Of a stretch of 50,785 bases of DNA, positions 4,658 to 49,653 are shown in pieces. The position numbers were made by a program, and so were the translations under genes. The first letter of the stretch is position 1. Each line of letters starts with the position of its first letter. Source of the DNA: Mizuhopecten yessoensis. Taxonomy: Eukaryota. The DNA lies in NCBI RefSeq assembly GCF_002113885.1, contig NW_018408896.1, forward strand, positions 2,935,215 through 2,985,999. The letters are read 5' to 3'. Under the pieces are notes generated by a model. It ran no database searches, was not told the origin of the DNA, and saw only the letters and a list, made by a program, of their open reading frames with translations.

Positions 4658-4750
4658 TTTAACTCATCAACCCCTGAAGACACTTTTGAACTCTTCCAAC
4701 TCAATGGTTGGAATAGTTCATTTAGAAACTTCAGGGGTAAATGAGTTAAG
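4658..4750. mobile_element. Foldback MITE, family copy 1 (TIR ~TTAACTCATCAACCCCTGAAG)
   Basis: ~20-bp terminal inverted repeats (ttaactcatcaacccctgaag ... cttcaggggtaaatgagttaag) flank a ~50-bp core that shares 'ttccaac..ttgg...agttcaaatg' with the other copies. Confidence 0.6.
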
Positions 4751-5535: not shown

Positions 5536-5672
5536 CACAGCGTGTAGTATTGTTATAAGAATGAAGGATGCACAGCGTGTAATATTGTTATAAGAATGAA
5601 GGTTGCACAGCGTGTAGTATTGTTATAAGAAGGAAGGTTGCACAGCGCGTGTAGTATTGTTATAAGAATGAA
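5536..5672. repeat. Tandem minisatellite, ~37-bp unit x4 (cacagcgtgtagtattgttataagaatgaagg)
   Basis: Direct reading: four near-identical head-to-tail copies. Confidence 0.8.
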
Positions 5673-8436
5673 GAGTAGATGTAGTCAACAGTCAAATCAA
5701 AATCAGATAAGACATCAATCTGTCAGGCTTTAACAGATGATACTCTAGGAATAGGTAACAGATCAAAATTCAAAGGAAAATTTTAATTAAAAAGAATTAT
5801 ATATGTCATTCAACAAAGGTATTAACTATACTGTCAGACTAAAAGGAATTTTAATGTACATTATTAATACAGCGTCAGTGAGAGAAAGAGATAAAACTGC
5901 CACCTTGTGTCATATTTCACACTTGCGGCACACAACAAACAAAAACAGGTTTATTTTGGGATGGGAACACAGCTATTTACATACGCGTTATAGTCACTAT
6001 AAATAACATTTGATTGTAAAAGTAATAGCACAGCAGATACACCTAATTTTATGGACATTTGGGCGGTCAATTTTCCGTTACATATATATACATACTATAG
6101 TAAATACTAAATATCATTGATAAAGGATACTATCACAGGTATTTTTGTAGGAATAATGAGGTACAGTTATCACATACAACAATATTAAAATAGTGTATGA
6201 GGTACAGTTATTCAGATGTGCAAATGACATTCTATTTTTTATAATAAGAATCTGCATTATCTTGTTCTAATGGCTAAAAATAGTTTAAGCAACAGTCTAC
6301 CATAAAAATGACTTGTTTGTAAATGTGTGTTAATGATGATACTAAATGTTTAACCTATTGTTTTGTAATACATTTCATTTTTTTAGATTGGGTAAAAGTT
6401 TACTTCACTAGAAATGGCAAGAAAATATCCATTTCTTTGTAGATAGCCGATATAGCAAATCAATTGTGTAAGGAATAAATGAAAGGTGATAATATTTGTA
6501 TCAGAGAAATAGAATATCTTTAATCAACAATCATGTGTTACTACAACATACCAACAAAATGTCTGCACCTTGACCCCTTAGTATCCCTAGTCTTTCTATA
6601 CTACTTCCCTTTTTGCTGATGTCTACATAATTTCTTTTTCACAATTATAAAGAAATGACCATTGTTCTGACCTTGTCACATGATTGGAGCAGAAGACATC
6701 CAAAAGAAGTGAAGAGTTGCCATACGTAATAAAGGGACAACAAATTCTGGGGGAAAAGCTACACCCCTACCTGTATGGATCAGCTTTATAACAGCTGTAG
6801 GCTAACATCACACGGCTGTCTACTGTCTGCTAAATATGCATAGTGATGTTGTCAAATTCTAAAGTAAATAAGTGCAAATGTCTATTCAAATTGCTGAATA
6901 TGTCATTCTAATGTTGGATTATGCATTACTCATCTATTATATATTACATTCTAGGATTTCATAAAAGAACCACAATTTCCTTAAATGGATATATTACTGA
7001 ATCAATTATTAAAGAAAAAAAGTTATCCGACAATTTCAAGTTTTGTTTTAAGGTCATTTGACACATGAGTCAGTTTGTACTCTTAGGATTACCTTGATTT
7101 GTATTAACGTCAAATCTCTCTCTGAGTTGTGAATGTATCACTTCAACTCATAAATGTAGTTATTGTCTCAGAGTTTTGATTGGTCTTCCATCAAAAATAT
7201 TTTTTATTTTTTATTTGTACTGTTTAAAATATTCTCTTTTGATGTACATTTTTATTCAATGCCCTTAACTATGAAATACTTTGGAGTTTTCTTTACCTTT
7301 TAACATTAGCATATCAAGGTGCATTGCACATTTAGTATTTTAAAAAGATCTAATCAGTTGAGATGCAGTTGATGAAGTACATTGCGCTAACAGTTACACA
7401 AGAAATCCTCCCTGAGCTAATATTCTAGACATAGGCCCTCACCCTGAGCTAATGTGCTAGACTTAGATAATCCTGACAGGTATTGGTCTAGCAAATGAAT
7501 ACAATACAAAGTGCTCCCAGGGAACGAGGCGACAGAAAACACGCCGGCAAGCCGTTAACAGTAATTAACTGCATGTAGGCTTGAGGTGTCTTATCAGAAT
7601 GAAAAAGTCATACAAGTGCTCAAATACAGCATAAAAAACCAAGTTATATAACGATGTGTTATATGTACAGATTTACATTTTGTAGTCATGTTACACACTA
7701 TGTACAAAAGTTTAGACAGTTATGTAAGTGTACAACAGAAATAGTATATGAATGTTAACATTACAGAATTACTTTAACAACATCTAGTATTTACATGATA
7801 CAAAACAAGAATAAAACTTTGTAAATAATATTTTAACCGGTTCATTTCATTTGGTATATGTGAAACCATACTGAATCAATAATCATTAAATTCATCATGG
7901 TTGCTAGCACATCCTCTATGCTGGTGTATTTCCATGTGTTCCTCACGTATGATGTTCCCATGGTTACCACAAACAAATTTGAGCAGATGTCTGTTAATAG
8001 TTTACAATCATGTCTCCTGTCTTGAATGATGCCATTTCAATAGGTTATATTCCAGTCCTATTTGTTTTCACACTTTTATTCAGTTTGGTACCTGTTAATT
8101 AGTTATTATTGTTATTTCACCTGCTGACGTCAAACACCAAACTGTAGACCAGTAACACTGTGTGTCACTTTAAGATGTTGCTGTCAAAGTCTTGACTGTT
8201 AGTTGATTACCCGAGTCTATTGGTGCCAGGTGAGAAAGTGGATGTTGCCCAGCTGGTCACCACAAACCACACGCACCAATGATTTCCCCGTCACGGATGC
8301 TGATTGGCTGATAATGGCCAGGCTCTCCACAGGGGCAGGACAGAAGAACAACCCAGCCTGTAACAGCAAACGGATAAAAGTCACAAATAAACGTAGACCT
8401 AGAGTGTTAAAGTCAAAAATGGATGTTAACCCATAA

Positions 8437-8990
8437 TGTCAAAGGTCATCAATGGATACAGATCCAGTGTCATTGCCATAAATGTATATAAACCCAGAGT
8501 ATGTGTCAAAGGTCATAAATGGATACAGATCCAGTGTCAGAGGCCATAAATGTATATAAACCCAGAGTATGTGTCAAAGGTCATCAATGGATACAGATCC
8601 AGTGTCAAAGGTCATTAATGCATGTAGACCCAGAGTATGTGTCAAAGGTCATAATGTCAAAGGTCATAAATGAATATAGATCCATAGTGTTAATGGTTAC
8701 AAATGATGTAGACACACAATGTCAAAGGTCAAAAATGCAGGTAGACCTAGAGATGTGTCAAAGGTCATAAATTGATATAGATCCACAGTGTCAAAGGTCA
8801 CCAGTGAATTAGACCGATGATGTCAAAGGTCATAAATGCATGTTGACCAAGAGTATGTATCAATGTCAAATGCATGTGGAAAAACAGTGCCAAAGGTCAG
8901 AATTAAATGTAAATCCACATCATAAAAGGTCAAAATTGGATGTAGACTCAGACTGTCAAAGGTCAAACTGGATTCACAATCAAAATATGT
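8437..8990. repeat. Satellite array, basic ~33-bp period with ~67-bp higher-order unit (tgtcaaaggtcataaatggatacagatccagtg / tcagaggccataaatgtatataaacccagagtatg), ~8-9 HOR copies
   Basis: 'tgtcaaaggtcat(a/c)aatg' recurs about every 33 bp and 'cccagagtatgtgtcaaaggtcat' every ~67 bp. Every monomer carries an AGGTCA core. Degenerate 'tgacctttg' relics recur at 9590-9800. Confidence 0.8.
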
Positions 8991-10830: not shown

Positions 10831-11151
10831 ACAGTATGTCAATCTGCACAGATACAAAGTTGAGTGCCCTTGACCCAAGTATCCTTCACGCAAATCCATA
10901 AATCAATATAACTATTGAAAAAATATGCTCAGAATGTTTGAAATTCAGTTAAAATCTGCCAACTCATATTTCAAGGAGTAGACTTTTAAGTACATTATCC
11001 CTATTTCCCTATTGGGCCCTTCCCTCTGCCCTCCAAGAGGCACTTATTTTGTGTACTCCAATTCAATTCACTTAGCTATGGGACCATTCATACCAAATTC
11101 AGTCAAAATCTGTCCCTCCATTTTTTCTCTCTATGTAGCGGCTAAACTTAC

Positions 11152-11259
11152 TTGTTTGAGCTTGTTCTCTCTTCGCCAGACTTTGACAGTACAGTCATGT
11201 GCTCCAGTAAATACAAAATGATCTGAAGTTGTGACACAGGTGACAGCAGCACTGTGAAT
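11152..11259 (-). CDS. TEP1: TEP1-like WD40 exon: [36 protein letters not shown] (last exon resolved; donor gtaagt follows)
   Basis: 36 codons between ttacag and gtaagt. '[11 protein letters not shown]' is a WD40 strand-C/D motif. Confidence 0.6.
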
Positions 11260-14200
11260 CTGTAAAATAGAAATCCAAGGTTAACAAAAAGTCTAGCACT
11301 TAAATTATACAGAATCGCATGTCAGATTGACATTCTATTGAAATATGAAATAATCGGAAAAATCTTATAACAATACACTTTAGAATACTGTGTTGAAAAC
11401 TAAGATTCTCCGCTCAAGCCATTTTCTTGTTTGGGTGATGAATTGATAGAAATCCACATTTTACTACTGGTAATGATCTTGAAGAATTTTTGGAGACACT
11501 TGAAGACAAATGGCATTGAAAATTAAAAAACCTTCCTCAGTATTAGGCTACTCATTCTGTTGAAGTCAGACTTATTTTCATATTCTTGGTTATACTGTTA
11601 TGTTGTGATATTACAGACAGATGTTACTGTGGCTTGGTTAAATATTTGGGCTTAACTTCCTACGTTAAGCTATTCAGATGTACATCAAAAGAACATGTCA
11701 TGTGACGTTTGATACCGTGAAATATCTACCTTTGTTTCTGTGTGGTTCTCCATTTGTCTGTTGATGGTAGTGATCTGGCCAGTGGAGGTGACAGCGTAAC
11801 TATCCCTGGAGTAGGCCGTCAGGTCCAGTACCCTCACCGGTACCTGTCTGTGTGGGGGAACCTTTGAGGTCGGGGGGATATAGATGCTTTCATCAAAGCT
11901 CAACTTCTGACCAAGCTGAAACATAAAAATACACAATGGATTTCACGGGTGTTTATGTAGGTGAATGTAAAACCCCACACATTAAAGTGGGTAAATCATT
12001 TTTACGTGCATTGCGTTAACATCGGGTTAAAAGTTTGACAGTACTACGAAATCAGGACGAAACGTTGCCAGTGTAACTGGAATATGAGACTGTGTGGGTA
12101 TATACGTAGCTCACCTTGTTTATAGTGCCTTTACAGATGTAGCCGTTCGCTGTAGCCACATGGAAGGTGGGCGTGGCTTTCCCCAACATGAACTTAATCC
12201 CCAGTATCCAATCCGATTTTCCAAATTCAAAGCTGTAAAAATAGCGAAAATCAAATTAAAACATACCATATGATTTTTTATTCAGTACAGTGTAAGTTTG
12301 TTGCTTGGTACAGCTAACATTCCAGATTTTTTAATCACCTAAGAGACATAAACTTTTCCCGGAGTGACTGCCATATTGTTCCCATTGATATTTTATGATG
12401 GCTGTTGATTTATTTAATGCAGGGGTTATTAATTAGCCTCTGATTAACTCTACCGAGAGACGGTAGAACCTGTCTAATCCAGACACCATCACAGCCAACA
12501 ATTTTGCTTGGAATAGACAGGTTTTCAAATGCACATGTTAAATTCACATAGAAATGTATACAATTGGACCTTAACTCATTCACCCCTGAAATTTCCTAAC
12601 ACACTATTCCAACCTTTGGTTTGAAGGAGTTCAAATGTGTCTTCAGGGTGAATGAGTTAAAAGAGTTGAAGGTCTGATTTACAAGTGTTCCTGTATAAAT
12701 ACTATTACTCAGGGTTGGATTCATATTAAGTACAACTAATTCCACGTGAGATCAATACGATAACATATATATTGGACATCAGACATTTTCACTTACGATA
12801 ACATATATATTGGACATCAGACATTTTCACCTTTCATCTTAAAAGTTCTCTCATATATTTTTTTCTTATCCGGGTAAAGATTAAGACCACTTTTATCTTG
12901 GTTTTCATATATAGATCATGAAGTTTTGAAAATTTTCCGAAAGTATAAATTTTAAACCAGATAAAGCCAATAGTTTCCAATTACCTATTGGAAAGTGGAG
13001 TCTGCTGCTCAGTGTTCCAGACAGTTAGCTTGCCACACCATTCTCCAGACAGGAAAATATGGCCAGATTTGGAGGTCATCTCGGAGGAGGTGGCTAAGGC
13101 AGTGACCGGGGACATGGTACTGAACACCTTCTTCTTATGACACACAGGCACACTGTTGAGAGAAAATATATATACATTTAACTGTGACACACAGGCACAC
13201 TGTTGAGAGAAAATATATATATACATTTAACCATGACACACAGGCACACTGTTGAGAGAAAATATATATAATACATTTAACCGTGAAACACAGGCACACT
13301 GTTGAGAGAAAATATATATAATACATTTAACCGTGAAACACAGGCACACTGTTGAGAGAAAATATATATATACATTTAACCGTAACACACAGGCACACTG
13401 TTGAGAGAATATGTATAATGTTAATTAATTTAGGGCCAAAGATGGATAAACAGGTATGAGGAAGGAGACTGCAGGGTCTACTTGACTCATTATAAATGTC
13501 CATGATTATATAAGCACACTTACCTGTGACCAGATTGGGACTTTTTGTAGATGTTCCAAATGATGATCTGGCCATCGTCTCCTCCAGTCACAAAAGCATT
13601 GGGTGCCAGGAAGCAGGCTGCATTTACAGATTTCTTGTGAGCCTAAACAAAAAAAGATTTTAAACTAAAGTACACTGCCTCCATTCTAATAAGTTGTTAA
13701 AATACAACCTGGCATTATCTTATATTATACACGACATACACAAAACGCTACAGCACGATCCAGGACTCTGTTGTATAACACACAGAGAACGTTATGTATG
13801 ACAACATGGTAGGCATGTATTTTGTAAGATGTAACTGTTAAAATTAAACCCAGGTCACAGATCTTACCTGTAATGACATGGCACATATTGGTCGCCCGAC
13901 TTCAGTAGGTTTATACCAAATCTTCAACGTTCCGTCCCTGAAAAACAATAATTTCACTTTATAAATTACAAATGCTTTGTTAGCTAATTTGTTTACATTT
14001 GGAAAAAGGAACATCTTCACCAAAAAATCTCTTCAAACAATGTGTATCACAATTATTGATTACATAAATATTTTCAGTAACATACATTAAATGATAAAGG
14101 TTCTACAGTGTCACTTATACCGACCTACTACCAGTCAGCAGGAGTGATTTGTCTGGCGATGTCTCCACAAACGTGACAGGTGCATTATGAACATCGGTGG

Positions 14201-17200
14201 CTGTCTCTGTTGACAATTGTGGTTCCCAGAGTCGGATGGCTTTGTCCAGGGATGTTGTACACAGGTGGCCATCTTTGTTGGCAGCTACACTGACCACTCG
14301 GTCAGAGTGACCGGTTAGATTGGCCATCTCATTGGCCTGGAAAATATAAAGCCAACCAATAAAAATCCAAAATATATTATGGTAAGAATGAAGTCTGTCT
14401 AAATAGGAAAAGATACACAGGATTATTTCACATAAACAGTTGCATGACACACATAATGAAACTGTTTGATTTATAAATGTTAAACAAAATGGAGAATTAT
14501 AGATATTTAATGGCTGTTTGTCAATGCCATCATATAGACAAATACTTATACATATTTATTTTTTATTCTAATCAAGTCATTTTGGTATGATTATTCTTTT
14601 AAAATCATGAAACTATGTTAATTTTGAGCCACAAAACAGGGGAACTGACAAAAGTCAGGTCTTATGCCCCAAGAGGCCTGTGAGAGCGACTCGTTTTGGA
14701 CAGAACATGTTTATGGTAATATGAAGAGGCTTTGATCAGGCATACCTGTAGAGGTTTCCACAGTACAGCGGTGCCGTCATCACCACATGTGGCTACAATA
14801 ACCTCCTCCAGATTCACTGCAGGTTTGTGAGTTTTTTGGGTCTTTGCTTCCAATTCGTCAGCCTCTACTACAGCACTCCAACTCATTTCATCTGAATAAT
14901 ACAAGACAGGGGAATAAGTCTTCATATTAAAAACAGGGGCCTCTTTGTTTATGCGGAACAACCGGTTTGTTTGTTTTTAAATGTAACATTTTCGGGTATA
15001 AATCCTGGCGGACCTGCGAGTGTTAATGTTAATGTAGGCCTTGTAAGGCTTTGTCAAGGCTCGCCTGAAAGCAGCATCAGATTACTAGGTCCGACCTTAT
15101 TTCATAAACGAACAACTCTGGTCTAACCAGTTCAACCGTTTAGATCACGATAAACGAATGCAGCCCTGGTTAATTCTAATCTGTTTTGAACATTTATGAA
15201 ATGATGCAATAATAACAAACATTATATTTCAGATACTTAAAAATCCATCAATTTGATCGCCAATCATTAACTGACATTCCATTCACATACAGTGATGAAG
15301 GAGTTGCAGAGAATCTGATTACGTGTCGGAGAGAATCTGATTACGTGTCGGAGAGAATCTGATTACGTGTCAGTATTAAAGAATTATTCAAGACAATAAA
15401 GAAACAACAGACCTTGAACATTGACTCTGTCGACTTCAGACACTCTGACGTAGAGGTCACAGGCGTGTGCTGCCCTCTGGTGGGAGTGTAGAGTGGTGAT
15501 CTCGACGCCCTTGTGTGACCACACTTTGACTGATCCGTCATTACAGCTGGACACAATACAGCCGTACTGAAACAAAGAAAACAGAAATAGTACTGGATAA
15601 GGAGCACAGTACAATCAGGAAATGGCAACGACCTTTTAGGCTGGGGTAAACAAAAATAGTACTGGATAAGGAGCACATTACAATCAGGAAATGGCAACGA
15701 TCTTTTAGGCTGGGGTAAACAAAAATAGTACTGGATAAGGAGCACAGTACAATCAGGAAATGGCAACGACCTTTTAGGCTGGGGTAAACAAAAAAGATGC
15801 CTTAATTTTAAGATTGATTGCTGAAAGTTACTTTGATTTCTTTGTTTGAAATTATGGATAGTAAAAGCTAAATATATTTACAAGTTAAGCTGATTAAAAG
15901 TTAAGGATAGTTATAAGTTAAGGTAAGTTATAAGTTAAGGATAGTTATAAGTTAAGGATAGTTATAAGTTAAGGTTGGTTATAAGTTAAGGATAGTTATA
16001 AGTCAAGGTTTGCTACAAGTTAAGGATATTCATAAGTTAACTCATTCAACCCTGAGGACATATTTGATTCAATTGATTTCAATTCATAGGTTGAAATAGT
16101 TATTTATGAAATTTCAAGGTTGAATGAGTTAAGAATAGGTAAAAGGAAGAATAGCTATAAGTTTAGGAAAGATACAAGTTAAGTATAGCTGGAAGAGGAC
16201 CCTTATTTTGTACTTAGTAACATATCTGTCTCTCACCTTGTAGGCTACCGATGATATTGAGGACATGTGACCAGTAATCTTCTGTTTCTCCTCCCCGGTC
16301 TTAACATCCCAGACTTTAAGAGTGAAGTCATTGGAGGCTGTCACCTACAAACATACAGAATAATTAACACCAGGTAGCATAAATAACAGCTGTGGGCTCT
16401 ATAAACAGGTAGCATAAATAACACCTGTGGGCTCCATTAACAGGTAGCATAAATAACACCTGTGGGCTCTATTAACCATTTCACGCACTGAAAACCATAA
16501 TGGACTCATCCAGATCAATGTATGGTAGAGTTTACTAAGTTGTATAGGGCTGAAAGAATTAACAGGTAACATAAATATGGAATGTGTACATAAGTTAGTA
16601 GATTTTACAATAGTGAACATGGTTTTGTTTTGTTGTTGTTTCGTTTTTTTAAAAACTTAAACCATGTATAAAACATCATGTAACTGTGCTCTGAAGACGG
16701 CCTCCTTTTCAATGAAACATGTCAGCACGTAGGATGTAAATCAAACATTACATTTTGTACCGGATTCAGTGGTGTTGTTGCTCATCGTTTCTATTTTCAT
16801 TTGCCATGTATAAAACAATACTGTAAATCCTGACTAACTGTGTGCAGTGTCCATTTACACAAATATACATTAACTCATTGATTATTAAGGTAACATGTCA
16901 CAGGTAGCCCAAAATTAAGCATATATCCTTTATAACTTTAACACCAATCACAGAATTACTGTGTAGTATTTATTCTTTAACGTAAACCACATATATAACG
17001 TATAAGGAAATAAATACTTTGGTGATATTGCTAATTCATAGTTTACTGTACATACCAGAAAATCTCCAAACCAGCTACAGCCGGTCACCCAGTCTTTGTG
17101 GCAGTCATGTAAAACTTGTATTGGGGTAGAGCTGGAGTCCAAGATACTCATCCTCAGCTCCCAAATCTTCACCGACTGAGGATAAAACAGGTGTAGGGAT

Positions 17201-23200: not shown

Positions 23201-26200
23201 TCCATGGCTTTGTTTCCAAATGCTGAACAAAACATTAATAACAGGGTAAAGCTACAACATTTCAACTCATAACACGACCGAATCAGAATTTACAGATCTT
23301 GTTTAGTAAACTGTAAATCCATTATCACACAAACAATCATTCATATATGTGGATTGAAATATAAAGTTATTTCCTTATGTACGGAAAAGTAAGAAATTCT
23401 TATCACAGTAAAACCTGTTTACAATACAAGGACCTAAGTTAGAAAGCAACAACAATCTTTATAGACAGAAAAAAATGAAAAGACATATCACTATTTGAAA
23501 TATCACTTTGAGAAATCTTAAACTGGGATTTATAAGCAGGTGATGGTCTCTGAGGCTGGTCTCACCATTATCCAGGAAAATTCACCATGTAACTTATCAT
23601 ACTTTATAAAAGACAATTTCTAAATCTGACATATTTTTCTGAAACAAATGTGTTAGAACAAAAGTTGTTATCTTTAATGCATCTTAGCTTTGTATGCTAA
23701 ATCTAAAATTTCATTTCATGGTTGTAATCAAAGATTTAGATTTGTAAATTTTTGGTCACATGACTAAGTGTTTTCATGTTACCTTTGACCTGGAAGTCAT
23801 CCATCAGTCTGGGTCCAAGGCCAAGCTGGATTTTCCTGTCGATGAATTTGATGTCACACAGCACAGCCTGCAACTCAGTAAACTCTCCGGCACACGACTG
23901 AAAGAATCATATGTATCTCGTTACAGAAATTATACAGGGAACAGAGGGCAAGGATTTTGTGACAAAAAATGTTTCTTATACAAAAAGACTTCTATAATCG
24001 AACTGGATCTCTTTTTCATAAATGAGTTTGCCTTCAAGTTGTGTTGTTTAATACATATTGAGTGTGATTAACAAATCGATCCAGAATTGTGTTTTTCTTA
24101 ATGACACATCATGTATGACCTACCAGGTGATAGGGTAGTTCACAGTAGGCTCGGGTACTTTTACCATGGAAACTGTGGCTTTTGTCAGGGTCAGCTTGCC
24201 GGTAAAAATAACCTGAAAATAATTAACAATATCAACAAATATGCTGGTAAAAATAACCTGAAATAATTAACAATCTCAACAAATATGCCGGTAAAAATAA
24301 CCTGAAAATAATTAACAATATCAACAAATAAGTCCAGCTGCTGTAGTTTAATATTTATCATTGATAATTAATTTTCGCAAACATTGCATACAAAAGCATT
24401 GTAAATTGTTAATAGTTCTATCCACCATTCTATCAGTACAGTGACAAATTTGCATAGGCCCTGATGTTTTTAGGAAAATATTTTTTTCTAAATTACATTT
24501 TTTTGGAATATAATGGGAAATATTTGTTGTTTTGTGACAAATTGGCATGGGTCATGATGTTTAAAGGAAAACTAGAAAATGTCTGTAAGACATGAATACT
24601 CCGGTCTCCATGTGGAATTCGTTTCAGTGTTTGATGTTCTATAAATAGTTACAACCACTTTGATCATGGGACGGGATATATGCGATGGACATGGGCAACA
24701 CTATATAGGCCCCCCATTTTATGGCGGGGGCATGATAAATGATTGTAAATTACGTTTTAGTGCAAAATAATGGCAAATATTTTTTGTCTGAAGTTTACTT
24801 ACCAGCCAGAAGTTTGTGTAGAGAAAACTCTTGTTCTGCTGCTGACCCTCTGAGGTAACGCTGTCTCACTGCAACCTCTATGTCAGCATGGGCCAGACTC
24901 AGTCGGGTGCTCCTGTAAAATATAGGTAATATGAAAGTAGATCCCAGGTCCATATATACAAGTTTTATAAAGCAAGATATTGCACAAATGATAGACTTAT
25001 GATAGAAGAAATCAATTGTTTGTATATGGTATATTTTACACAAAAAAAAAGTATTTTCAAACTGCACACATGAATGAATGTATGTTCAAAGATAATGATA
25101 AAGAATGCCAAAATCAAGTACCCCTAAACGGTATTAATTGTTTGATACAATTACAATTAAAAATTCTTTATTCCAATTGCCATATATATATATGAATTCC
25201 ATATATATATGAATTCCATATATATATGTATATATAGTGGTTGTAACTATATATATATATATATATATATTCCATATGATACCCTATAGGAAACAAACAT
25301 ATTTGTGATACATACCAGCGGTCCTGTGGGTTCAGGAAAGTCTGCAGTGACCGTTTAACCTGGGAGAAGATGAGGGGAGGTATCAGGTCCTCCTGAGATA
25401 GATGGATATTGATCACTCCCTGGACACTGATCTTTGTGCTCCCCAGCAGTGACTTTAGGCTCAGTAACTCATGTAGCTCCTCAGCATCCAAACCTGATAA
25501 TGTAATCACCTATTAAGTAATATATTGTCATAAAACCCAACACAGTATACATCTTTCCAGCTTGTTTTCTAACAAAATTATTTCTAAGTCATCGTTAGTA
25601 TTTATGCAAAAAAAACAAAAATACTTAGTACTTTGATATGTCTCAAGTGAAATTTCAGATAATGATCATTATAAATTCAAAAAAATAGCTGCTGCTTCTG
25701 TAAGGGTTGATAACACACTGTGCAAAATATCATAGAATCTAGACAGAAGGAAGTGGTGGACTCTCTGAGCCTTCCTGCCTCATAGCTAGTGTAGCTTTGT
25801 AGGCCAGTAGGCAGATATAGGTTGATTTTATAACCTCACTCCAAAATGCAAGGCTCTCATCCTCTCAAATAATATTATACAGCTTCTTTATGTCTCACCT
25901 TCCCTTGCACAGATGAGGAGAGACATTGCCATGACAACAGTTTCCTTGCCAAGGTCGTTCTCAAGGCGGGCGAGCACTTCCTGTAGTAACTGTTGTACAG
26001 TGTGTGGGAGGGACTTCAGCTTGCTGCTCACCTACAACAGAGACACAATGTATTGTAGACAGTGTTAACATTCTCTTCATTCAATTACCACAGTTGTCTT
26101 TTTACTCTACAGAGCCTTGTGAAGATTGAAATTTCTAGACTTCTATAAAAATGATCTTTTCTAATGGAAACTCATTAAAGAACCTATATAGAATTAAAAC

Positions 26201-29200: not shown

Positions 29201-32200
29201 TTTTGTTTTCATTCAGGTTTCAACCTTGACTTCTTTCCAGATTTAAATGTTCATTATGAGTTACTTTACCTCCTTGATGTAGAGTTTGTTCACTGAGTTC
29301 CAGAGGTTGTTAAGGACTCTAGCACCAAACAGTTCTAGGCCTGATACAAGGGGCTTGTCTTCTGCCACCCCTCCCCAGTGACATGGATACCCCTCATACA
29401 CTTCCAAGCCACTGTTTCGTATCCTTGTTTTCAGGTCGGCCATTTTGTTTTTACACTCAGCGTTCTCAGCAACAAAGTCAGATGTGAATTCTGCAGGAAT
29501 GTCCCTACAAAAGATGTAGAAAAGAGATTTTTTTCTTTTTCTTGATACCATATTCATGTCATTGTAAATGAACTTTTTTTAAAACATCTATTTATAAGGC
29601 TGTTAATCTGTGAATGCCCAGTAACAGAATAGAATATATGATTAGGTGCACCTTAATCAATATTTACAAAATGTTTCAATTCATGAGATCATGTTTACCA
29701 ATTAACTTAACTGATAAACAGTTTATACAAGATACCAAAACATATCGACAGTATTTATTTTAAGTAAAATGGCAGTGTGGTACTATTCCTACTATTTCTG
29801 TTGTATTATTCAAATATAATCAGAAGATACTAAAAACAGTGGTGTAGAGGTAATCAAACATACACCATAGAGAAGGTATATTAACACACTTACGTTTCAA
29901 ACTGGCTGTCCCTGAGAAAGAAGAAGGCGGACTGTTGAGCCTCCTGTGGCTGACTCAGGGCTCCGGCGTACATTTCCATCTCTGTGACAGACAGCCCAGG
30001 TTTGCTGTCTCTGACCCAGTCATACTCGGCTGTATCTGGGACGACATACTTCTCCGGTATCCAGCCGTAACGCTCTCCCAGGATTCCAAGGAACAGGTTA
30101 CACTGTTTTACCTCGGAGAGACACAGCTCCATGGTCCTGGAGATATCAAAACAAAAATTGTTAAAATAACCACCTTTTTTTCCATCCAACTCTTTAATTG
30201 AAAATTCTTGTTGTTTATTGAAAACTCTGTACTGGTTTAACTCATTTACCCCTACATTTTTAAAATCCTTCATTTTTAAAATGGACTTGCTCAGTCTTTG
30301 ATTTGGTAAGGTTCAAATGTGACTTTAGGGATGAATAAGTTAAAGGTGTTCAATGTTAATTGAGATTTTTTTTGATCTACAAAAAGGTTCTGTTTATAAA
30401 TGATGTTAGAGAAAATAGGATGGAAATATAAAATGTGTCCAGTACAACAGTGTAAAACAATATTGACTTAAGAAATACTGTCAGTTGTATCAAAAAACAA
30501 GATCTACTGTATCATAAATGTGAGGTTCTCACAATAAAAATTGTACCAAATATACACTGGTATTAAACATATACCAGATTCAAATGTTAAGTTTATAAAA
30601 CACTGATCTACCTGTTTGTCTTTGTGTCTTTCTCCGTCACTCCCCATCGGAGATCCACTTCATATACATTAATGAAGTGTTTCTTGGCAAGGGCACGTAA
30701 CTCTGGGAATATGTTCCTGGTGAGAATGTCTCTCTCGCCATGCATGTCGCGGAATGTTGAGGAGATGAACACTCGGATGGTTTTCCAGCTGTAAAGATAT
30801 ATTATGTTTGTTTAAGAGCCACAAACAGCCTCAGATAAACACAGTTGAAGTTTGTCTTATATCTTAGAGCATAGATCAATGAAATGAATTTAATTTTAAT
30901 TGATGATGTTGTACCCGAGTTCTGTCTTTCTTTACCTCGGGGAGTTAGAGACCACGGCCAGTGGTTTGGCAGGATTGACCAATTTGGGTTTGTTTCCCCT
31001 GTCTGCTGATGTGGTTGGCATGGGTCGAAGGTCAAATGCTTCGTCTATCTTCTCTACATGTCTCAGCTGTCCTCCTTCACCTCTCTCTGCTATAAACCTG
31101 TAACACATCAAATGGTGGATCAGAAAATAGCAATATACCCTGGTACCCTCTCTAATTATTATACACCTGTAACACATCAAATGGTGGATCAGAAAATAGC
31201 AATATACTCGCTACCCTCTCTAATTACTATAAACCTGCAACACATCAAATGGTGGATCAGAAAATATTCAAATACCCTCTTTAATAACTATGAACCTGGT
31301 GATACTGAAGATTGATTAGGTTCAGTTTATCTGATTTAATGTTCTGTTTACAGCTAAGGTCATTTAAGGTGCATCTCCATTTGTGTAAGCATGTTTGGCT
31401 GGTATATGTTGGTGTATTTGCTACCTTGTGTTAGCACCGATCTGATGCCAACTTTAAGAGTGCTACTGCACTGAAATATTATACTGAAGGAACTCTGGAC
31501 AATATTCCTCCAATTCACATTGTACTGAAGATAAGTAAACCAGCAGTTTTGTGAGAAAAGAACACTTTCAACACATTGTTATATTATGTCTTACCCGAGT
31601 ATCTGGTCGCTGTAACCAGATATGTAGTGGTATGTAGCCTTACCTGAGTATCTGTTGTTGTAACCAGATATGTAGTGTTATGTAGTCCTACTTGAGTATC
31701 TGTTGTTGTAACCAGATATGTAATGTTATGTAGCCTTACCCGAGTATCTGGTCGCTGTAACCAGATATGTAGTGGTATGTAGCCTTACTTGAGTATCTGT
31801 TGTTGTAACCAGATATGTAATGTTATGTAGCCTTACCCGAGTATCTGGTCGCTGTAACCAGATATGTAGTGGTATGTAGCCTTACTTGAGTATCTGTTGT
31901 TGTAACCAGATATGTAATGTTATGTAGCCTTACCCGAGTATCTGGTCGCTGTAACCAGATATGTAGTGGTATGTAGCCTTACTTGAGTATCTGTTGTTGT
32001 AACCAGATATGTAATGTTATGTAGCCTTACCCGAGTATCTGGTCGCTGTAACCAGATATGTAGTGGTATGTAGCCTTACTTGAGTATCTGTTGTTGTAAC
32101 CAGATATGTAATGTTATGTAGCCTTACCTGAGTATCTGGTCACTGTAACCAGCTATGTAGTGTTATGTAGTCTTACCTGAGTATCTGTTGCTGTAACCAG

Positions 32201-35200
32201 CTATGTAGTGTTATGTAGCCTTACCTGAGTATCTAGTTGCTGTAACCAGATATGTAGTGTTATGTAGCCTTACCCGAGTATCTAGTTGCTGTAACCAGCT
32301 ATGTAGTGTTATGTAGGCTTACCTGAGTATCTGTTGCTGTAACCAGATATGTAGTGTTATGCAGCCTTACCTGAGTATCTGTTGATGTAACCAGATATGT
32401 AATGTTATGTAGCCTTACCTGAGTATCTGGTCACTGTAACCAGATATGTAGTGTTATGTAGCCTTACCTGAGTATCTGGTCGCTGTAACCAGATATTTAG
32501 TGTTATGTAGCCTTACCCGAGTATCTACTCGCTGTAACCAGATATGTAGTGTTATGTAGTCTTACCTGAGTATCTGTTGATGTAACCAGATATGTAGTGT
32601 TATGTAGCCTTACCTGAGTATCAGGCCCCACTTGTATAAAACATCTCAACTCTTGAGATTTCCTCAAGCCTAAAATTTCACATAGACAATGCATTACTTG
32701 AGATTTTCCTCAACTTTGAGATGTTTTATACAAGTGGCCACTGGTCACTGTAACCAGAAATGTAATGTTATGCAGCCTTATCCGAGTATCTAGTTGCTGT
32801 AACCAGTTATGTAGTGTTATGTAGCCTTACCTGAGTATCTGTTGCTGTAACCAGATCTGTAGTGTTATGTAGCCTTACCTGAGTATCTGTTGCTGTAACC
32901 AGATATGTAGTGTTATGTAGCCTTACCTGAGCATCTGGTCGCTGTAACCAGATATGTAGTGTTATGTAGCCTTACCTAAGTATCTGGTCGCTGTAACCAG
33001 ATATGTAGTGTTATGTAGTCTTACCTGAGTATCTAGTTGATGTAACCAGATATGTAATGTTATGTAGCCTTACCTGAGTATCTGGTCGCTGTAACCAGAT
33101 ATGTAAATGTCATTGTCGTGCTCGGGAGTGATACTTTCTGAGAACCTACAAACCAGACAAAGAAAAAAATTAAATTCTTTTTTGAACATTTTGGAACTTT
33201 ACAAAATTGCTGTTTCTGTCAGTCAATATTATGTTTTATTACAAAAACTTAATTTAGACCGAATGAAAATATTTACCTAAAATGAAGCTTTATACTCTTT
33301 TAAAATATAAAATTGTTTCATAAAAAAACCACAAGTTAGGATATCAGACTAGTTTCCCCACCATTTCTGATTTACTTACCCATTATTCACGATTTAAAAC
33401 CAACAATTCCTTATTTGATTACCCACAATTCCTTATTACTTTACTCCACATTTCATGATTAACTTACCCACAATTCCTTATTAATTTACTCCACATTTCA
33501 TGATTAACTTACCCACAATTTCTGCCGGCAAATGAAATGTTGACATACAGCAGGTTGGGGTTTACAATTTCTCTGTATTTCTTCAAAAATGTTGAGAGAT
33601 ATTGCTGCTGGGTAGGTACATTATCCCCACCGCTCAGGAAGATCAAGTTGTCAACCTGTACAACACAAAGATGTCAGCGTGTCAATAGTACAAGTATAGG
33701 TAAACGAGATGTTAGGTCGCCAGTGTAAATAGAAAGATGCCAGGTTGTCAATGTGAACACAAATATGTCAAGTTTTCAATGTATGGTGAACACAAAGACG
33801 GCAGATTGTCAACAGAAACACAAAAATGTCATTTTATCATAGATACACAAAAATATCATGTTGTCGACAAAAACACAAAAATATCATGTTGTCAAGATAT
33901 GGTGTCGTGTTGTCAGCCTAGCTAGACCAAGAAAGGTCAGGTTTCAAGTTGTCACTCAGAAACACCAAAATACTATACTAAGAAGTTTTAAGTATCAGGA
34001 ATTACAATTAAACAAAATACTGAACATGATTATTATTTCTGTGTAAACTGTCCCTGTGGGTGTCCCCTTAGGGTATTTTATGTTACCTACCTGAATTCTG
34101 TCCCTCAGAGCATCGGACAATATCTTGTGTGGCAACATGAAAGGCAGAGACTCCGAATTCTTCACCTCAGCATTTAGCAGCTGTAATTAAAACAGAGAAA
34201 AGTTATATTAATGATGTACAGAAATTCTCTTTCAAAGATATTTACAATTTAGTAGGTCTCACATAATCAAAATTAAAATTCGAAGTTTTTGTTTAGGATT
34301 TTAAGTATCTCACAAACACTAACAGTTAAACTCTTCTGCTGGTGGCATTGAAGATAGGTTGTAAGGATTTAACTATCTTAAGATAATATTTAGACAGATT
34401 TATACATGATATCTTCGTTTTTGCTCTTTTGTCATATAAAACCTCACAGAAAAGGTGTTGGAAAGTTAGTAATGATAACAAGCAAAAGAAACACAGTACG
34501 TGAGCCTTACAGTCGATGGGTCGAGGACTACATCCATGTTCTCCAGAATGGTGCCCGACTTGAGCTGGACGTTGAAATAAGTGTTGGGTGTAAAAGCTAC
34601 CAGATCACACTCCTCACACGAATATTTGCACATCAAGCCGAGCAGGACTGCAACCTCCTTCATCTGCAACCAATTTAAATTTTAAGGTAAAAAGGTCTAA
34701 TAACAGTTAAATATTATAAAACAAGCAATTCGGATTGATATGTCTCGCCTGTGCACCGCTTTGACCATCAATAAACATATCGGTGAAATAAAATCAATTT
34801 AGACACCATTTGAAATGAAACTAACTTAAATGCAAAAACTTAATGTTGATGGAGATGCTGACATAGTCAATGGACCATGAAAGGTAGGCCATATCCAGCA
34901 TTTGATACATAGATTGAGATGTACTACCTAAGATGCATCTATGGCCCAAGTTTGGTTGGTCTAGCACCTATACTTTCAGTGAAACTAACTTAAAAACTTA
35001 ATGTTGATGCCTCCTCCGCCGCCAAAGGAAAACCTTAGTCTTGCTTCCACTTCTTCGTGGCGGCGAGACAAAAAGCAGGCTAGCTAACAGCAATTATCTA
35101 CTGTATACACAAGTCAAAATGTCACATATCAATACATTAAAATACTTAAAAAATAGTACCTGTCTAGGTTTGCCCAATCCCCTGGCTGCAGTACAATTGA

Positions 35201-37926
35201 CCTCCATGCTGGGTCCAATGTCACACAGGACAATAGTTCGTCCCCTAATTGGCTGAACATTGTAGGTTGTGGCGATCTTCACTGATTTATCAAGGGCTTT
35301 CTTGTACCTTGCAATCAGTTGCTTGTCAAATTGCGTTTCCCTGTAATGTAGAAAGTGGAGATAAAGTAAGGAACTAATAAGACACCATCACATTTCCTTT
35401 AGAAATTACCACTTTAGCCATCTAACTTAATTTGTGCATTTCTGAGTGATTAAATTCATGAGTTGTCTTCGAAATAAACTCTAAAATAAACATGTCAGTT
35501 TTTACTCACATCCTGAAAAGAAATTTAAGAGAACATGAAATATTTTTTCTGGTATAACTGGAAACACGTGACATCAGGGTGTCAAAACAATATTCAGTAC
35601 ACTGTACCTCCAAAACAATACCCAGTACACTGTACCTCCAAAACAATACTCAGTACACTGTACCTCCAAAACAATATCCAGTACACTGTACCTCCAAAAC
35701 AATACTCGGTACACTGTACCTTCAAAACAATACCCAGTACACTGTACCTCCAAAACAATACTCAGTACACTGTACCTCGAAAACAGTACTCAGTACACTG
35801 TACCTCCAAAAAAAAAATACTTGGTACAATATAATAATGAACACCCTAAGACTCTTTGTTATTGATAAGAAGTGGTTTAAAGACTTTAACAAATTAAGAT
35901 TCCTGTGACCTAGAAAGCGGGTCAAGGTCATCCACTTTATAACACTTCTTATCCCTTCATCAAATCATGCTACTTGCCGAATATCGTGACTAGGCCTTTT
36001 GGTTATCCATGAGCAGTCATTTATTACAGTTTGATGCCAGATGAAGGCAGGTGAGCAAATCCTTATCAATATTTCCCTTGAATCTTATAAAGTCTGGTTG
36101 AAGTATACATACTGTGGTGCATTGTTTTTATTTTTTTTCTTATCCAGCCACCACATTTCAGGGTTGGTCTTCTTGGCCCCACGACCACTACCTCTGGCCC
36201 CACGACTGCTACCTCTGGTCCCACGACCGCTACCCCTTCCACGTCCTTGTGTTTCAGAAGGGTCTAGTTGATTGGTTGCAGCCTCTGCCGCCTCCACTAT
36301 ATCAGATTCTGGTAAAACAAGGTCATACAAGATCATGGTTCCATTTTTTTTTAACAACCATCGATCAATGTGAAATTTAATAAAAAAAAAATCACCAAAA
36401 CAAGGATTGGTTTTGTATCAGGATACAAAACAAGAAATAATTTCGTAACAAGATAAAGAAGTGTTTTAAATATATCTATGTTTTCATTCAGACAATAATA
36501 AAAAGTTGAAAACAACTGATTAAGAAATGTATGAGGATAAGGCTACAGGCTTTGAGTCTGAGAGTCTATTTAGGTTACCAAACTGTTTGACTTGAATCAT
36601 TCACCCCTGAAATTTCATAATGAACTATTCCAAGCTTTGAATTGGAAGAGTTCAAATGTATCTCCAGGGGTAAATGAGATAATAAAACTTCAAACAAAAC
36701 AAAAAATTAAATGGTTATTTTGTTCACACTTCAAATGATTCTTTTCATGGCAATTGATTTTTTTAATATTTAAAAATGTTTTTTGTTTTATGTTTAATTT
36801 ATAAATTTCACCATCTTGGAAAAGATAAAAAAACACCATGTTGCTAACAGTGTCTGATATTATTGCCTTTCAGCCCTTTCAACAATCTTGAGTTCCAATA
36901 CTTACGACTTTTCTCATAGTCCTTTTCTAAATTTCCTAGAACTTCATAGGCAGAAAAGAACCTGAATGGAAACTGCTTGCTGTTCACAACTTGTTTCTAC
37001 AAACAAAATTGCAATCAGAATAAGAAATTTTATGAAATACTTAATGTTTATTCAACAATCAATTTACTATTTTCACGTTGAAATAATGCGTGGCGAACCA
37101 CAACACTTACCATTGATAATTCCATATTCTGTAAAACAGCCCACTCCCTTCTCAATGTATTTTACAATGATATATCCCTATTCAGTAATAGACCCATATT
37201 CTGGTATCAGATGATTTAAACCGTGACTGACCCATATTCAGTAATGAGCCCAGCCCTTATATTAGATGATTTTACTGGTGAATGACCCATATTCAGTAAT
37301 AAGACCAACCCCTTTGTAGCAGATTTTTCCAGTGATAAGTCCATGTTCAGTAATGAACTTGCCCTTCTTATCAAAAGGACTAATTAAAAGTACATGAGCA
37401 GAGAGTGAATTAAAGTAACATCTATATGTTAAATTTATTCACCACATTTAAGAACAATTGATTATCAATTATCACTCTTTTTTATAGTTGTTGCTATTAT
37501 ATTTAGTAGTACTACTTGCTGTATATATGTTATAAATATAAACTATAGCAAAATATAAAAAAATAAATTATTTATTCAATGCCTTCGCTAGGAGTCGAAC
37601 CCGGGCCTTCTGGCTTACTAGTCTTACACTCTACAGAATGTGCTAAAGAGAAATTCTCCCTAGCCGAGTCGGTAGGAAGCGGCTAGTATTTTACCAGGGT
37701 GATAAAACCGTGACATAAAGCAAATATTTCCTATTTAATAGTAAGTGATTTACAGTTATATTCTCAACCATCTGTCCGCTTTCTGATATGAAACAGAAAT
37801 AAGGAAATATACAAACCTCGTTAGTCAATCTGTGAAGGATGTTTGTGTGGTGTTTTTCAGATATCCCAGCCTTGATCACGTTCCGCAGGTTCCTCAGCAT
37901 GGCCATAAAGGGGAGCTTATTATGGT
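11152..37926 (-). CDS. TEP1: Locus span of a large multi-exon gene encoding a TEP1-like protein (TROVE + DUF4062 + NACHT NTPase + many WD40 repeats). Span only: more than 35 exons, with the 5' end (above 37926) and 3' end (below 11152) unresolved.
   Basis: Minus-strand ORF fragments in colinear order. TROVE/Ro60-like exons at 37.9, 36.9, 35.2, 34.6, 34.1 and 33.6 kb. DUF4062 ([16 protein letters not shown]...[16 protein letters not shown]) at 30.7/30.0 kb. NACHT P-loop GKPGSGKS at 28.8 kb and Walker [10 protein letters not shown] at 27.4 kb. At least 20 WD40-type exons run from 22.1 down to 11.2 kb (GH...WD, 'DxxVKVW' motifs). The last resolved exon, 11152-11259, ends at a gtaagt donor, so the gene continues 3'. 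Confidence 0.7.
12571..12660. mobile_element. Foldback MITE, family copy 2 (TIR TTAACTCATTCACCCCTGAA)
   Basis: ttaactcattcacccctgaa...cttcagggtgaatgagttaa; perfect ~20-bp TIRs. In a TEP1-like intron. Confidence 0.65.
12746..12830. repeat. 2 x 42-bp tandem duplication (gataacatatatattggacatcagacattttcac)
   Basis: Direct reading. Confidence 0.8.
13139..13410. repeat. Intronic minisatellite, ~60-bp unit x ~5 (acacaggcacactgttgagagaaaatatatatacatttaaccgtga)
   Basis: Direct reading. Generates the overlapping minus 'ORFs' 13135-13326 and part of 12981-13226. Confidence 0.8.
15296..15370. repeat. 3 x 20-bp tandem repeat (gagaatctgattacgtgtcg)
   Basis: Direct reading. Confidence 0.8.
15571..15792. 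repeat. 3 x ~66-bp tandem repeat (aaacaaaaatagtactggataaggagcacagtacaatcaggaaatggcaacgaccttttaggctggggta)
   Basis: Direct reading. Explains the repetitive 141-aa ORF 15341-15766. Confidence 0.8.
15893..16032. repeat. ~17-bp minisatellite (gttataagttaaggata)n, ~8 copies
   Basis: Direct reading. Confidence 0.75.
16037..16132. mobile_element. Foldback MITE, family copy 3
   Basis: ttaactcattcaaccctgag...caaggttgaatgagttaag. Intronic. Confidence 0.6.
16237..16344 (-). CDS. TEP1: TEP1-like WD40 exon: [36 protein letters not shown]
   Basis: 36 codons, acceptor ttgtag (16346/45), donor gtgaga. '[10 protein letters not shown]' then 'GH'. Confidence 0.6.
16362..16470. repeat. 3 x ~39-bp tandem repeat (acaggtagcataaataacacctgtgggctctattaac)
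   Basis: Direct reading. Confidence 0.8.
17944..18098 (-). CDS. TEP1: TEP1-like WD40 exon: [51 protein letters not shown](R)
   Basis: Acceptor ttttgcag, donor gtacgg. WD40-like 'ATGSED'. Confidence 0.45.
20147..20266 (-). CDS. TEP1: TEP1-like WD40 exon: [40 protein letters not shown]
   Basis: 40 codons exactly, acceptor ccacag, donor gtatgt. Canonical WD40 (GH-x-SV-...-SAS-DG-VKIW). Confidence 0.65.
21152..21301 (-). CDS. TEP1: TEP1-like WD40 exon: (R)[49 protein letters not shown]
   Basis: WD40 pattern GH...ASASWDxTVKVWD. Acceptor ttccag, donor gtgaga. Confidence 0.55.
24200..24330. repeat. 3 x ~46-bp tandem repeat (ggtaaaaataacctgaaaataattaacaatatcaacaaatatgct)
   Basis: Direct reading. 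Confidence 0.8.
25175..25290. repeat. AT microsatellite / (catatatatatgaattc)n, low complexity
   Basis: Direct reading. Confidence 0.8.
27335..27482 (-). CDS. TEP1: TEP1-like exon, NACHT Walker [50 protein letters not shown]
   Basis: Walker B hhhhDGhD (LLVFIDGID). Acceptor tgttccag, donor gtatat. Phase does not join directly to the 27965-28141 exon as drawn, so a micro-exon or an alternative junction is unresolved. Confidence 0.5.
27965..28141 (-). CDS. TEP1: TEP1-like exon (NACHT): [59 protein letters not shown]
   Basis: Only frame 0 is open. Acceptor ttgctag, donor gtaagc. Confidence 0.5.
28767..28949 (-). CDS. TEP1: TEP1-like exon, NACHT P-loop: [61 protein letters not shown]
   Basis: Walker A GKPGSGKS. 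Acceptor tgttacag (28951/50), donor gtaacc (28766/65); 183 nt, phase 0. Confidence 0.65.
29270..29504 (-). CDS. TEP1: TEP1-like exon (pre-NACHT): (T)[78 protein letters not shown]
   Basis: Acceptor ttttgtag, donor gtaaag; phase-consistent (AC|G gives Thr). Confidence 0.55.
29894..30136 (-). CDS. TEP1: TEP1-like exon (DUF4062 continuation): (R)[80 protein letters not shown]
   Basis: Acceptor ctccag, donor gtaagt; phase-consistent with the previous exon (AG|G gives Arg). Confidence 0.6.
30236..30343. mobile_element. Foldback MITE, family copy 4 (more diverged)
   Basis: tttaactcatttaccccta...ctttagggatgaataagttaaa. In the intron just upstream of the DUF4062 exon. Confidence 0.45.
30612..30788 (-). 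CDS. TEP1: TEP1-like exon (DUF4062): [58 protein letters not shown]
   Basis: Acceptor tttacag at 30790/89 and donor gtagat at 30611/10, checked base by base. '[16 protein letters not shown]' is the DUF4062 signature found N-terminal to the NACHT domain in TEP1/NWD1. Confidence 0.6.
31096..31300. repeat. 3 x ~62-bp tandem repeat (cctgtaacacatcaaatggtggatcagaaaatagcaatataccct...)
   Basis: Direct reading. Creates the repetitive plus ORF 31058-31315. Confidence 0.8.
31589..33106. repeat. Satellite array, 49-bp monomer (ccttacctgagtatctggtcgctgtaaccagatatgtagtgttatgtag), ~29 copies, with a 98-bp higher-order unit in its left third; interrupted at 32623-32740
   Basis: Direct reading. At 31700-32100 the alternating variants ('cccgagtatctggtcgc...gtggtatg' / 'cttgagtatctgttgttg...taatgttatg') repeat as exact ~98-bp dimers. 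Confidence 0.85.
32623..32740. mobile_element. Palindromic MITE-like insertion (~118 bp) inside one satellite monomer; TIR ~GGCC(C)CACTTGTATAAAACATCTCAA
   Basis: The monomer 'gagtatc|tggtc' is split by aggccccacttgtataaaacatctcaactcttgagatttcctcaagcc...cttgagattttcctcaactttgagatgttttatacaagtggccac. It has ~24-bp inverted termini plus internal sub-repeats. Confidence 0.55.
33403..33530. repeat. 2 x ~50-bp tandem duplication (ttacccacaattccttatta.tttactccacatttcatgattaac)
   Basis: Direct reading. Confidence 0.75.
33513..33655 (-). CDS. TEP1: TEP1-like exon (TROVE C-terminal part): [48 protein letters not shown]
   Basis: Acceptor tgtacag, donor gtaagt. Aligns with Ro60 'ADVFIVFTDNETFAGG...[20 protein letters not shown]'. 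Confidence 0.5.
34093..34182 (-). CDS. TEP1: TEP1-like exon (TROVE): [30 protein letters not shown]
   Basis: Flanked by ttacag / gtaggt. 'SLPFMLPHK' corresponds to Ro60 'SLPMIWAQK'. Coordinates approximate. Confidence 0.45.
34511..34663 (-). CDS. TEP1: TEP1-like exon (TROVE vWA-like): [51 protein letters not shown]
   Basis: Acceptor ttgcag, donor gtaagg, 153 nt in phase 0. Aligns with Ro60 '[24 protein letters not shown]...'. Confidence 0.55.
35160..35282 (-). CDS. TEP1: TEP1-like exon (TROVE vWA-like, MIDAS motif): [41 protein letters not shown]
   Basis: Codon-by-codon check. A 'DxSxS'-type metal site (CDIGPSM) aligns with Ro60 'LLAVDVSASM'. Donor cag|gtac at 35160; an in-frame stop upstream at 35316-18 forces the acceptor to ~35283. 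Confidence 0.55.
35575..35815. repeat. 30-bp minisatellite x ~8 (tccaaaacaatactcagtacactgtacc)
   Basis: Direct reading. Explains the repetitive plus ORFs 35535-35908. Confidence 0.85.
36591..36682. mobile_element. Foldback MITE, family copy 5 (left TIR degraded: tgaatcattcacccctgaa)
   Basis: ...attcacccctgaaatttcataatgaactattccaagctttgaattggaagagttcaaatgtatctccaggggtaaatgag. Confidence 0.5.
36900..36995 (-). CDS. TEP1: TEP1-like exon (TROVE): ...[30 protein letters not shown]
   Basis: Matches the Ro60 'RIHPFHILIALETYK' region. Boundaries not resolved. Confidence 0.35.
37145..37370. repeat. ~3 diverged copies of a ~60-bp tandem repeat (tgacccatattcagtaatgagcccagccc...)
   Basis: Direct reading. 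Confidence 0.6.
37590..37665 (-). other. tRNA-derived sequence relic (B-box GGTTCGACTCC on minus strand); possible SINE head or tRNA pseudogene, not a foldable canonical tRNA
   Basis: Plus strand 'gagtcgaacccgggcc' is the reverse complement of GGCCCGGGTTCGACTC (T-arm consensus GGTTCGANTCC). I could not build a complete cloverleaf with an acceptor stem by hand. Confidence 0.25.
37817..37926 (-). CDS. TEP1: TEP1-like exon (TROVE domain): ...[33 protein letters not shown]
   Basis: Resembles Ro60/TROVE 'LTALLRNLGKMTA...'. Acceptor ctccag, donor gtttgt. Boundaries approximate. Confidence 0.45.
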
Positions 37927-49449: not shown

Positions 49450-49653
49450 TTCAGTGATTTTAAATAGTATGCTATCAGGCACCACGGTGGTACACCTGCT
49501 CGTTTCACGGGGAGGTTTTCCATTTTTTAATTACTTTCGGGGCTTTATTAGGGGGGTTCCTTGAACCTTTTCCCTACCTTGAGCATGTCTCGAGTTTGTT
49601 CCGTCAGCCTGGTCTGCCTGGATTCGAAGCCTCCACTACGGTAAGACGAATTC

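Follow-up and report, generated by a model that had tools for sequence, protein, structure and literature searches.

Seven foldback elements in and around a scallop TEP1 gene are very probably relics of a non-autonomous piggyBac-type (TTAA) MITE lineage

The window analysed here, a stretch of 50,785 nucleotides of Mizuhopecten yessoensis DNA, carries several short foldback elements, most of them within one gene, and raises the question of what these elements are: remains of a DNA transposon, and then of which superfamily, or structures that serve the gene around them. The preliminary description had read five such units as a family of miniature non-autonomous DNA transposons (MITEs) with terminal inverted repeats (TIRs) of about 20 bp. 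MITEs are generically defined as being under about 500 bp long, homogeneous in size and non-coding (PMC2872659). The MITE reading was borne out, as the elements are short and non-coding, possess TIRs, sit between unrelated flanks, occur in both orientations and carry a target-site duplication (TSD). Taken together, the features of the sequence make it very likely that the window holds seven relics of a non-autonomous piggyBac-type (TTAA) MITE lineage, divided into two diverged subfamilies.

Rereading the sites recovered all five (5/5) copies of the main family that had been proposed. These are c1 at 4659-4749 (minus strand, 91 bp), c2 at 12571-12660 (plus, 90 bp), c3 at 16037-16132 (minus, 96 bp), c4 at 30237-30343 (plus, 107 bp) and c5 at 36592-36682 (plus, 91 bp). 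The limits given earlier for c2 and c3 stood, while the starts at 4658, 30236 and 36591 and the end at 4750 were each off by one. When the window was searched on both strands with the TIR 20-mer TTAACTCATTCACCCCTGAA, allowing up to three mismatches, nine arms were matched against 0.02 expected from dinucleotide-preserving shuffles, a count that was reached in 0/100 shuffles; the tenth arm, the right arm of c2, escapes this search only through the loss of one G. The TIRs of about 20 bp common to the copies are therefore real, judging by the nine arms against 0.02 expected, but the perfect TIRs attributed to c2 and c3 are not: the arms of c2, the left of which is the consensus 20-mer, differ by a 1-nt indel, and those of c3 are 95% complementary. 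Perfect TIRs are present in none of the copies, and the arms of c1 are 90% complementary.

Global alignment in both directions separated the copies into two orientation classes, c2/c4/c5 and c1/c3. Co-orientation of all five copies was ruled out in this way, c1 and c3 being inverted relative to the other three. With c1 and c3 reverse-complemented, pairwise identity among the five copies is 68-84%. Their majority consensus, TTAACTCATTCACCCCTGAAATTTCATAATGAACTATTCCAACCTTTGAATTGGAAGAGTTCAAATGTGTCTTCAGGGGTGAATGAGTTAA, is 91 bp long including the TTAAs and is a near-complete foldback with perfect 20-nt arms; its ends read TTAA followed by CTCATTCACCCCTGAA on one side and TTCAGGGGTGAATGAG followed by TTAA on the other. 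Leaving out the TTAAs, the element measures 83 bp and the TIR about 16 nt. Divergence from the 91-bp consensus ranges over 7.7-23% across the five copies, with c5 (7.7%), c2 (8.9%) and c1 (9.9%) at the lower end and c4, the most decayed copy with a 16-nt internal insertion, at the upper end (23%). Both TTAAs flanking c5 are mutated, to TTGA and ATAA. When c1 to c5 were aligned together with 40 nt of flank on either side, the likeness started and stopped precisely with the terminal TTAAs, and beyond them the sequences were unrelated; membership of the unit in some longer repeat, which would have counted against the family, is thereby ruled out.

Profile searches uncovered a sister subfamily in the same window. 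Its two copies, x1 at 3473-3563 and x2 at 16472-16562 (both on the minus strand, both 91 bp), are 84% identical to each other and were found with the sister-subfamily profile at nhmmer E values of 3.8e-30 and 8.6e-29, respectively. One end of x1 reads TTAA followed by CCCTTTCACCCCT and its other end is decayed (TTAC), while x2 lies at a TTAA of a 35-bp minisatellite. The ends of this subfamily are TTAA followed by CCCTTTCACCCCTA and TTAA followed by TTCTTTCAGCCCTA. The main-family profile picks up x1 at an E value of 1.9e-05 (nhmmer), and the two profiles reciprocally detect each other at E values of about 1e-5, over their full length and in a consistent orientation. As judged from these profiles, the seven elements in the window are two diverged subfamilies of one lineage. 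Sizes run from 90 to 107 bp, with 5/7 copies at 90-91 bp, which is too short for protein coding. No further copies or solo ends beyond the seven were detectable in the window by profile search, giving a density of seven copies in 50.8 kb.

The gene in which most of these copies lie is encoded on the minus strand and is TEP1 in the sense of telomerase protein component 1, with TROVE (PF05731), DUF4062 (PF13271), NACHT and WD40 domains; reading TEP1 as a thioester protein would be wrong. Its closest relatives among indexed proteins are 33-46% identical, and long TEP1 proteins are seemingly missing from that set. The uppermost exon mapped by tblastn with homologues is at 50206-50307, and the series runs down to two WD40-like pieces (11134-11280 and 8220-8438). 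The earlier proposal that four copies lie in introns of this TEP1-like gene held up, since c2 to c5 all fall between mapped minus-strand exons, and with x2 added, 5/7 copies (c2, c3, x2, c4 and c5) are within introns of one gene. More precisely, c2 has WD40-like exon pieces on both sides, c3 is placed shortly downstream, in minus-strand terms, of the exon at 16219-16344, and c5 lies between the exons at 36901-36996 and 35100-35369. Copy c4 is about 96 bp upstream of a 3' splice site, the exon starting near 30141; two HSPs that seemed to carry a TEP1 exon into c4 were rejected as low-identity over-extensions. The intronic copies occur in both orientations relative to TEP1. The remaining two, c1 and x1, are beyond the last detectable TEP1 exon and are not demonstrably intronic. 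Also on the minus strand, two open reading frame pieces at 36085-36357 and 42817-43164 are rich in RGRG/SD repeats (for example ...GRGGGRGVGRGRGRGRGRGRGG...SDSSDSSDSDSEDE) and flank the N-terminal exons of TEP1; they are probably low-complexity N-terminal repeat exons of this gene.

Two of the insertions made it possible to read the target site directly. Copy c3 lies at a TTAA of a 17-bp minisatellite (unit TTATAAGTTAAGGATAG), which TRF places at 15852-16040 and which continues in degenerate form after 16132, to 16190; the TRF array stops on the left TTAA of c3. Copy x2 lies in the 35-bp minisatellite mentioned above (unit CAGGTAGCATAAATAACACCTGTGGGCTCTATTAA), placed by TRF at 16371-16476 in a region that reaches to 16577. 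Both minisatellites have one TTAA per unit. The pre-insertion sequence was rebuilt under alternative models, each of which was aligned to the tandem consensus. For c3, the model in which one TTAA is kept scored 51, with an ungapped junction, against 42 with none kept and 46 with both kept (42, 46 and 46 for the alternatives). For x2, the corresponding scores were 65 against 56 and 60 (56-62 for the alternatives), the one-TTAA model matching at 65/69 positions with no gap. In both cases the phase of the array was recovered only by removal of the element body plus one TTAA, and one TTAA is therefore duplicated host sequence. TTAA is the duplicated host target, as seen at two independent insertions. 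By way of such minisatellite insertions, the length of a TSD may be established from a single haplotype, with no need of an empty allele.

Over all seven elements, TTAA is intact in 11/14 flanking tetramers, and TTAC, TTGA and ATAA, which make up the remainder, are each one base off. The preliminary description had left open whether the target was TTAA, as in piggyBac-like elements, or TA, as in Tc1/mariner-like elements, and had asked for the flanking bases to be inspected; that check yielded the TTAA duplicated at c3 and x2 and the 11/14 count, and the evidence favours TTAA and piggyBac, a TA target not being favoured. Whether all 4 bp (TTAA) or only the TA of a T-TA-A site had been duplicated, the reconstructed empty site would read the same. 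All intact ends nevertheless have the outer T and the outer A, which argues, from sequence, for TTAA specificity under either kind of duplication. The 17-bp and 35-bp minisatellites are about 300 bp apart in one intron, and each has been struck by one MITE at a unit TTAA. Arrays that offer a TTAA in each of their units may collect TTAA-specific elements as target sinks.

Which superfamily the elements belong to is then a matter of their termini. The piggyBac elements duplicate TTAA, have TIRs of 12-19 bp and end in CC[C/T]T (PMC2872659), and a set of 157 piggyBac-like elements has C[C/A/T][C/A/T][T/G/A][T/A/G][T/G/A] as its first six bases (PMC5381638). The end of the sister subfamily, CCCTTT, agrees with the strict CC[C/T]T motif. 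That of the main family, CTCATT, agrees with the relaxed piggyBac motif but not with the strict CCC or CC[C/T]T. When six piggyBac transposases (from the supplement of PMC2872659) were run by tblastn against the window and all fetched loci, no transposase was found, the best E value being 0.66, so that the superfamily was assigned from the TSD and TIR features alone. In mollusc genomes piggyBac is present wherever it has been surveyed, and bivalve MITEs are abundant but unclassified (PMC10294476). Under the piggyBac assignment, a DDD transposase of the piggyBac family, its gene lying at another place in the genome, would have moved the elements in trans, by binding their TIRs, cutting them out and inserting them anew at TTAA tetranucleotides; copies would then have built up, and been tolerated, in introns and in TTAA-bearing minisatellites.

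The alternative that survives best is a MITE of the Kolobok superfamily (compare T2-MITE/Xmix of Xenopus) or of another TTAA-duplicating superfamily, Sola included, moved by the transposase of that superfamily. Kolobok elements and T2-MITEs do target TTAA, as the present elements do, and the latter are of the same MITE size class and are abundant near and within genes (PMC6004289). Among the molluscs surveyed, Kolobok-type elements occur nearly only in bivalves (PMC10294476), and no transposase was found that could decide the matter. The termini, however, disagree. Kolobok and T2-MITE ends are purine-purine, with AGGRR in the motif and AG in all ten full-length XKol copies (PMC6004289), whereas all intact ends here are C-initial (CTCATT or CCCTTT) and lack the RR motif, and the sister subfamily is an exact match to the piggyBac CC[C/T]T. 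We regard a Kolobok or similar origin as very unlikely.

Less likely still is a MITE of the Stowaway-like Tc1/mariner type, in which the duplication would be confined to the central TA and the flanking T and A would be either a preferred context or part of the element. TTAA does contain TA, the reconstructed empty site would look identical, and among the DDE superfamilies of bivalves Tc1/mariner is the richest (PMC10294476). One would, however, need a T before and an A after the TA at every intact end in seven independent insertions, and the CCCTTT terminus of the sister subfamily is a piggyBac hallmark (PMC2872659).

The hairpins themselves had been described as near-perfect. In DNA foldback tests this was strongly so for c1, which has the best hairpin, c2 and c5 (z of -8.6, -6.1 and -5.5), more weakly for c3 (-4.2), and not for c4, where the fold is not significant (-1.8); c4 and x2 fold poorly. 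Folded as RNA in the pre-mRNA sense, the main-family copies gave z values of -5.3 to -11.6. In the arms of the five main-family copies, 24 pair-breaking cells were counted against 4 double changes, and the covariation term is unfavourable (+2.44). A scan of Rfam 15 gave no match at the gathering threshold, and none at E values up to 1 overlapping any copy. These results support the hairpin being a by-product of the TIR/foldback architecture and not a selected RNA structure. The pair-breaking arm mutations, the mixed orientations and the decayed ends point to inert, ageing transposon relics; given the 8-23% divergence, the decayed ends and the uncompensated arm changes, the copies are, by their sequence, old and probably immobile. 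The least likely reading of all is that TEP1 has co-opted the hairpins, or that they have been duplicated within it, as functional intronic RNA elements (small-RNA precursors, or structures for splicing or editing). The good folding in the pre-mRNA sense and the five of seven copies in introns of one gene would suit it. It is opposed by the empty Rfam result even at E values up to 1, the occurrence of copies in both directions with respect to TEP1, the arm changes (24 pair-breaking against 4 compensated) with their covariation term, the poor folding of c4 and x2, the minisatellite insertions with TSDs, which show transposition, and the two copies outside the detectable gene.

A separate structured tract, AT-rich and palindromic, is found at 25175-25277 and is made up of (TA)n and ATGAATTCCATAT motifs. 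The sole permissive Rfam match in the window, mir-1277 at 25175-25244, falls on it with 27 bits against a gathering score of 81 and an E value of 0.69; this was judged to be chance and is unrelated to the MITEs.

The lineage resembles several described groups of elements. The closest described analogue is that of the coral CMITEs of Acropora millepora and A. palmata (Wang et al. 2010, PMC2872659), which are likewise about 100 bp long, non-coding and intronic, with a TTAA TSD and TIRs starting with CCCTTT. CMITE families V (CCCTTTCCACCCTA) and VI (CCCTTTCACTGCCA) closely resemble the sister-subfamily end CCCTTTCACCCCTA (PMC2872659). The CMITE TIR is shared with a piggyBac-like autonomous element that has an unrelated interior, and the defining feature of CMITEs is an internal stretch of about 75 nt that is highly conserved (PMC2872659). 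Membership of the present elements in that group was rejected: the 60-nt core consensus scored 7-10 against a shuffled mean of 8.0-8.7, and blastn-short gave no match at any element. Unlike the coral elements, those described here belong to another host phylum, and tandem MITE arrays were not seen.

Likeness to human MER85 and MER75 and to mosquito TTAA MITEs such as Wuneng lies in short length, piggyBac-type TIRs, insertion at TTAA and a transposase acting in trans, and piggyBac-derived MITEs may be either internally unrelated to the autonomous element or deleted derivatives of it (PMC2872659, PMC2268245, PMC5199201). In contrast to these, the present elements have no sequence relationship with them, are unusually short and almost all foldback, and the main family has CTC in place of CCC. 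Short, non-autonomous CvA/pearl elements have been reported in bivalves including a scallop (PMC5874043); unlike these, the present elements have true terminal repeats and are without an internal tandem core. Literal searches of the literature with both termini returned chance primer matches only, Repbase and Dfam lying outside this comparison, so earlier cataloguing is possible. Ours is an ordinary, old non-autonomous DNA transposon lineage, of the same kind as the known piggyBac/TTAA MITEs.

Copies were also sought outside the window. The scallop samples (about 113 kb from two genomes) were fetched through the proteins of the retroelement described below. No copy of either subfamily was found in about 91 kb of chromosomal DNA from Argopecten irradians, in 21.5 kb from Ylistrum balloti or in a related 6.7-kb contig, and repeats shared by the window and the scallop samples were absent apart from the retroelement. 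The lack of any copy in these roughly 113 kb suggests that the family is not ubiquitous in scallops. TTAA-bounded hairpins of the MITE type were likewise absent from those of the fetched loci that were scanned for them (L029-L033, about 96 kb). A two-arm pattern scan of 185,579 prokaryotic species genomes gave matches that were discarded as four unrelated prokaryotic palindromes, and the same type of scan of IMG/VR gave no viral match.

When metagenomes were scanned with the 19-mer end, 23 loci came up. Twenty of them match by chance, in surroundings that are bacterial or mammalian-like, and were rejected as relatives, having no second arm and no profile match. Among these, L008, L009 and L012 have an extra 'GAAA' after the motif, no second arm and no significant profile match; L009, the one that was translated, reads as a plausible coding frame. 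The exact 20-nt end TTAACTCATTCACCCCTGAA occurs on the other three, contigs of one environmental metagenome (PJEL01), where it begins a multi-copy element (1739-1802 of L007, 257-1413 of L010 and 1343-1411 of L024). There it is TTAA-bounded and preceded by unrelated flanks, and the interior of the element is common to the three contigs (84-93% identical) and unlike the MITE core. On L010 the element is longer than 1.1 kb, a second end does not appear, and its first 1.1 kb has no long open reading frame; it has a subterminal palindrome (GCCAATATAGCGGCATGCC...CATGCCGCTATAGCGGCATCC). It shares only the 20-nt end with the window, and nothing else with the window or with the scallop loci. MITEs usually have their TIR in common with a longer element in this way. 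The PJEL01 element is, by its terminus, a candidate parental or partner element of the MITE. A horizontal acquisition by a single scallop lineage, to which the elements would then be confined, with the long PJEL01 element as their parental or autonomous form, seems unlikely, though the shared 20-nt terminus and the absence of copies from about 113 kb of two other scallop genomes would fit it; if true, a piggyBac element whose CTC terminus is non-canonical would have passed between species.

For annotation, which is where their value mainly lies, the elements supply two defined piggyBac-type MITE families for a pectinid repeat library. They look like neutral intronic passengers. They would matter more if they seeded small RNAs or altered TEP1 splicing, for which c4, about 96 bp from its 3' splice site, is the copy to consider. 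An active partner with a CTC terminus, if one exists, could be a tool for mollusc transgenesis.

Several other repeats share the window with these elements. An element of 110 bp at 32628-32737 has perfect 22-nt inverted arms (CCACTTGTATAAAACATCTCAA and TTGAGATGTTTTATACAAGTGG) and no TTAA ends, and may represent another MITE family.

A retroelement occupies 43213-50003 on the plus strand, in a TEP1 intron, with a GC content of 51-59% in a host of about 36% GC. It has a gag-like open reading frame at 43783-46347 (no Pfam match) and an RT/RNase H frame at 46364-48550 (RVT_1, E value 5e-22), and a further frame, which extends to 49449, resembles a recombinase at its C-terminus on visual inspection, again with no Pfam match. 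A perfect 58-nt inverted repeat is present at 49688-49745 and 49944-50001, and the left end (43213-43395) matches Argopecten copies in both orientations. The architecture, as predicted from these frames and repeats, is DIRS-like. Exact look-ups of its 1016-aa open reading frame and of two Mizuhopecten proteins returned no record. Compared with the copies in A. irradians, the element is 82-84% identical in DNA and 88-92% in protein; for the RT frame, identity is 88-92% with Argopecten irradians, 73% with Mizuhopecten yessoensis, 66% with Ylistrum balloti and about 55% with Mytilus, values by which the host is very probably a pectinid scallop.

Finally, an intronic minisatellite at 38364-40916 is built from a 51-bp unit repeated 50 times, with 97% matching, and yields spurious stop-free open reading frames of 850-900 aa on both strands.
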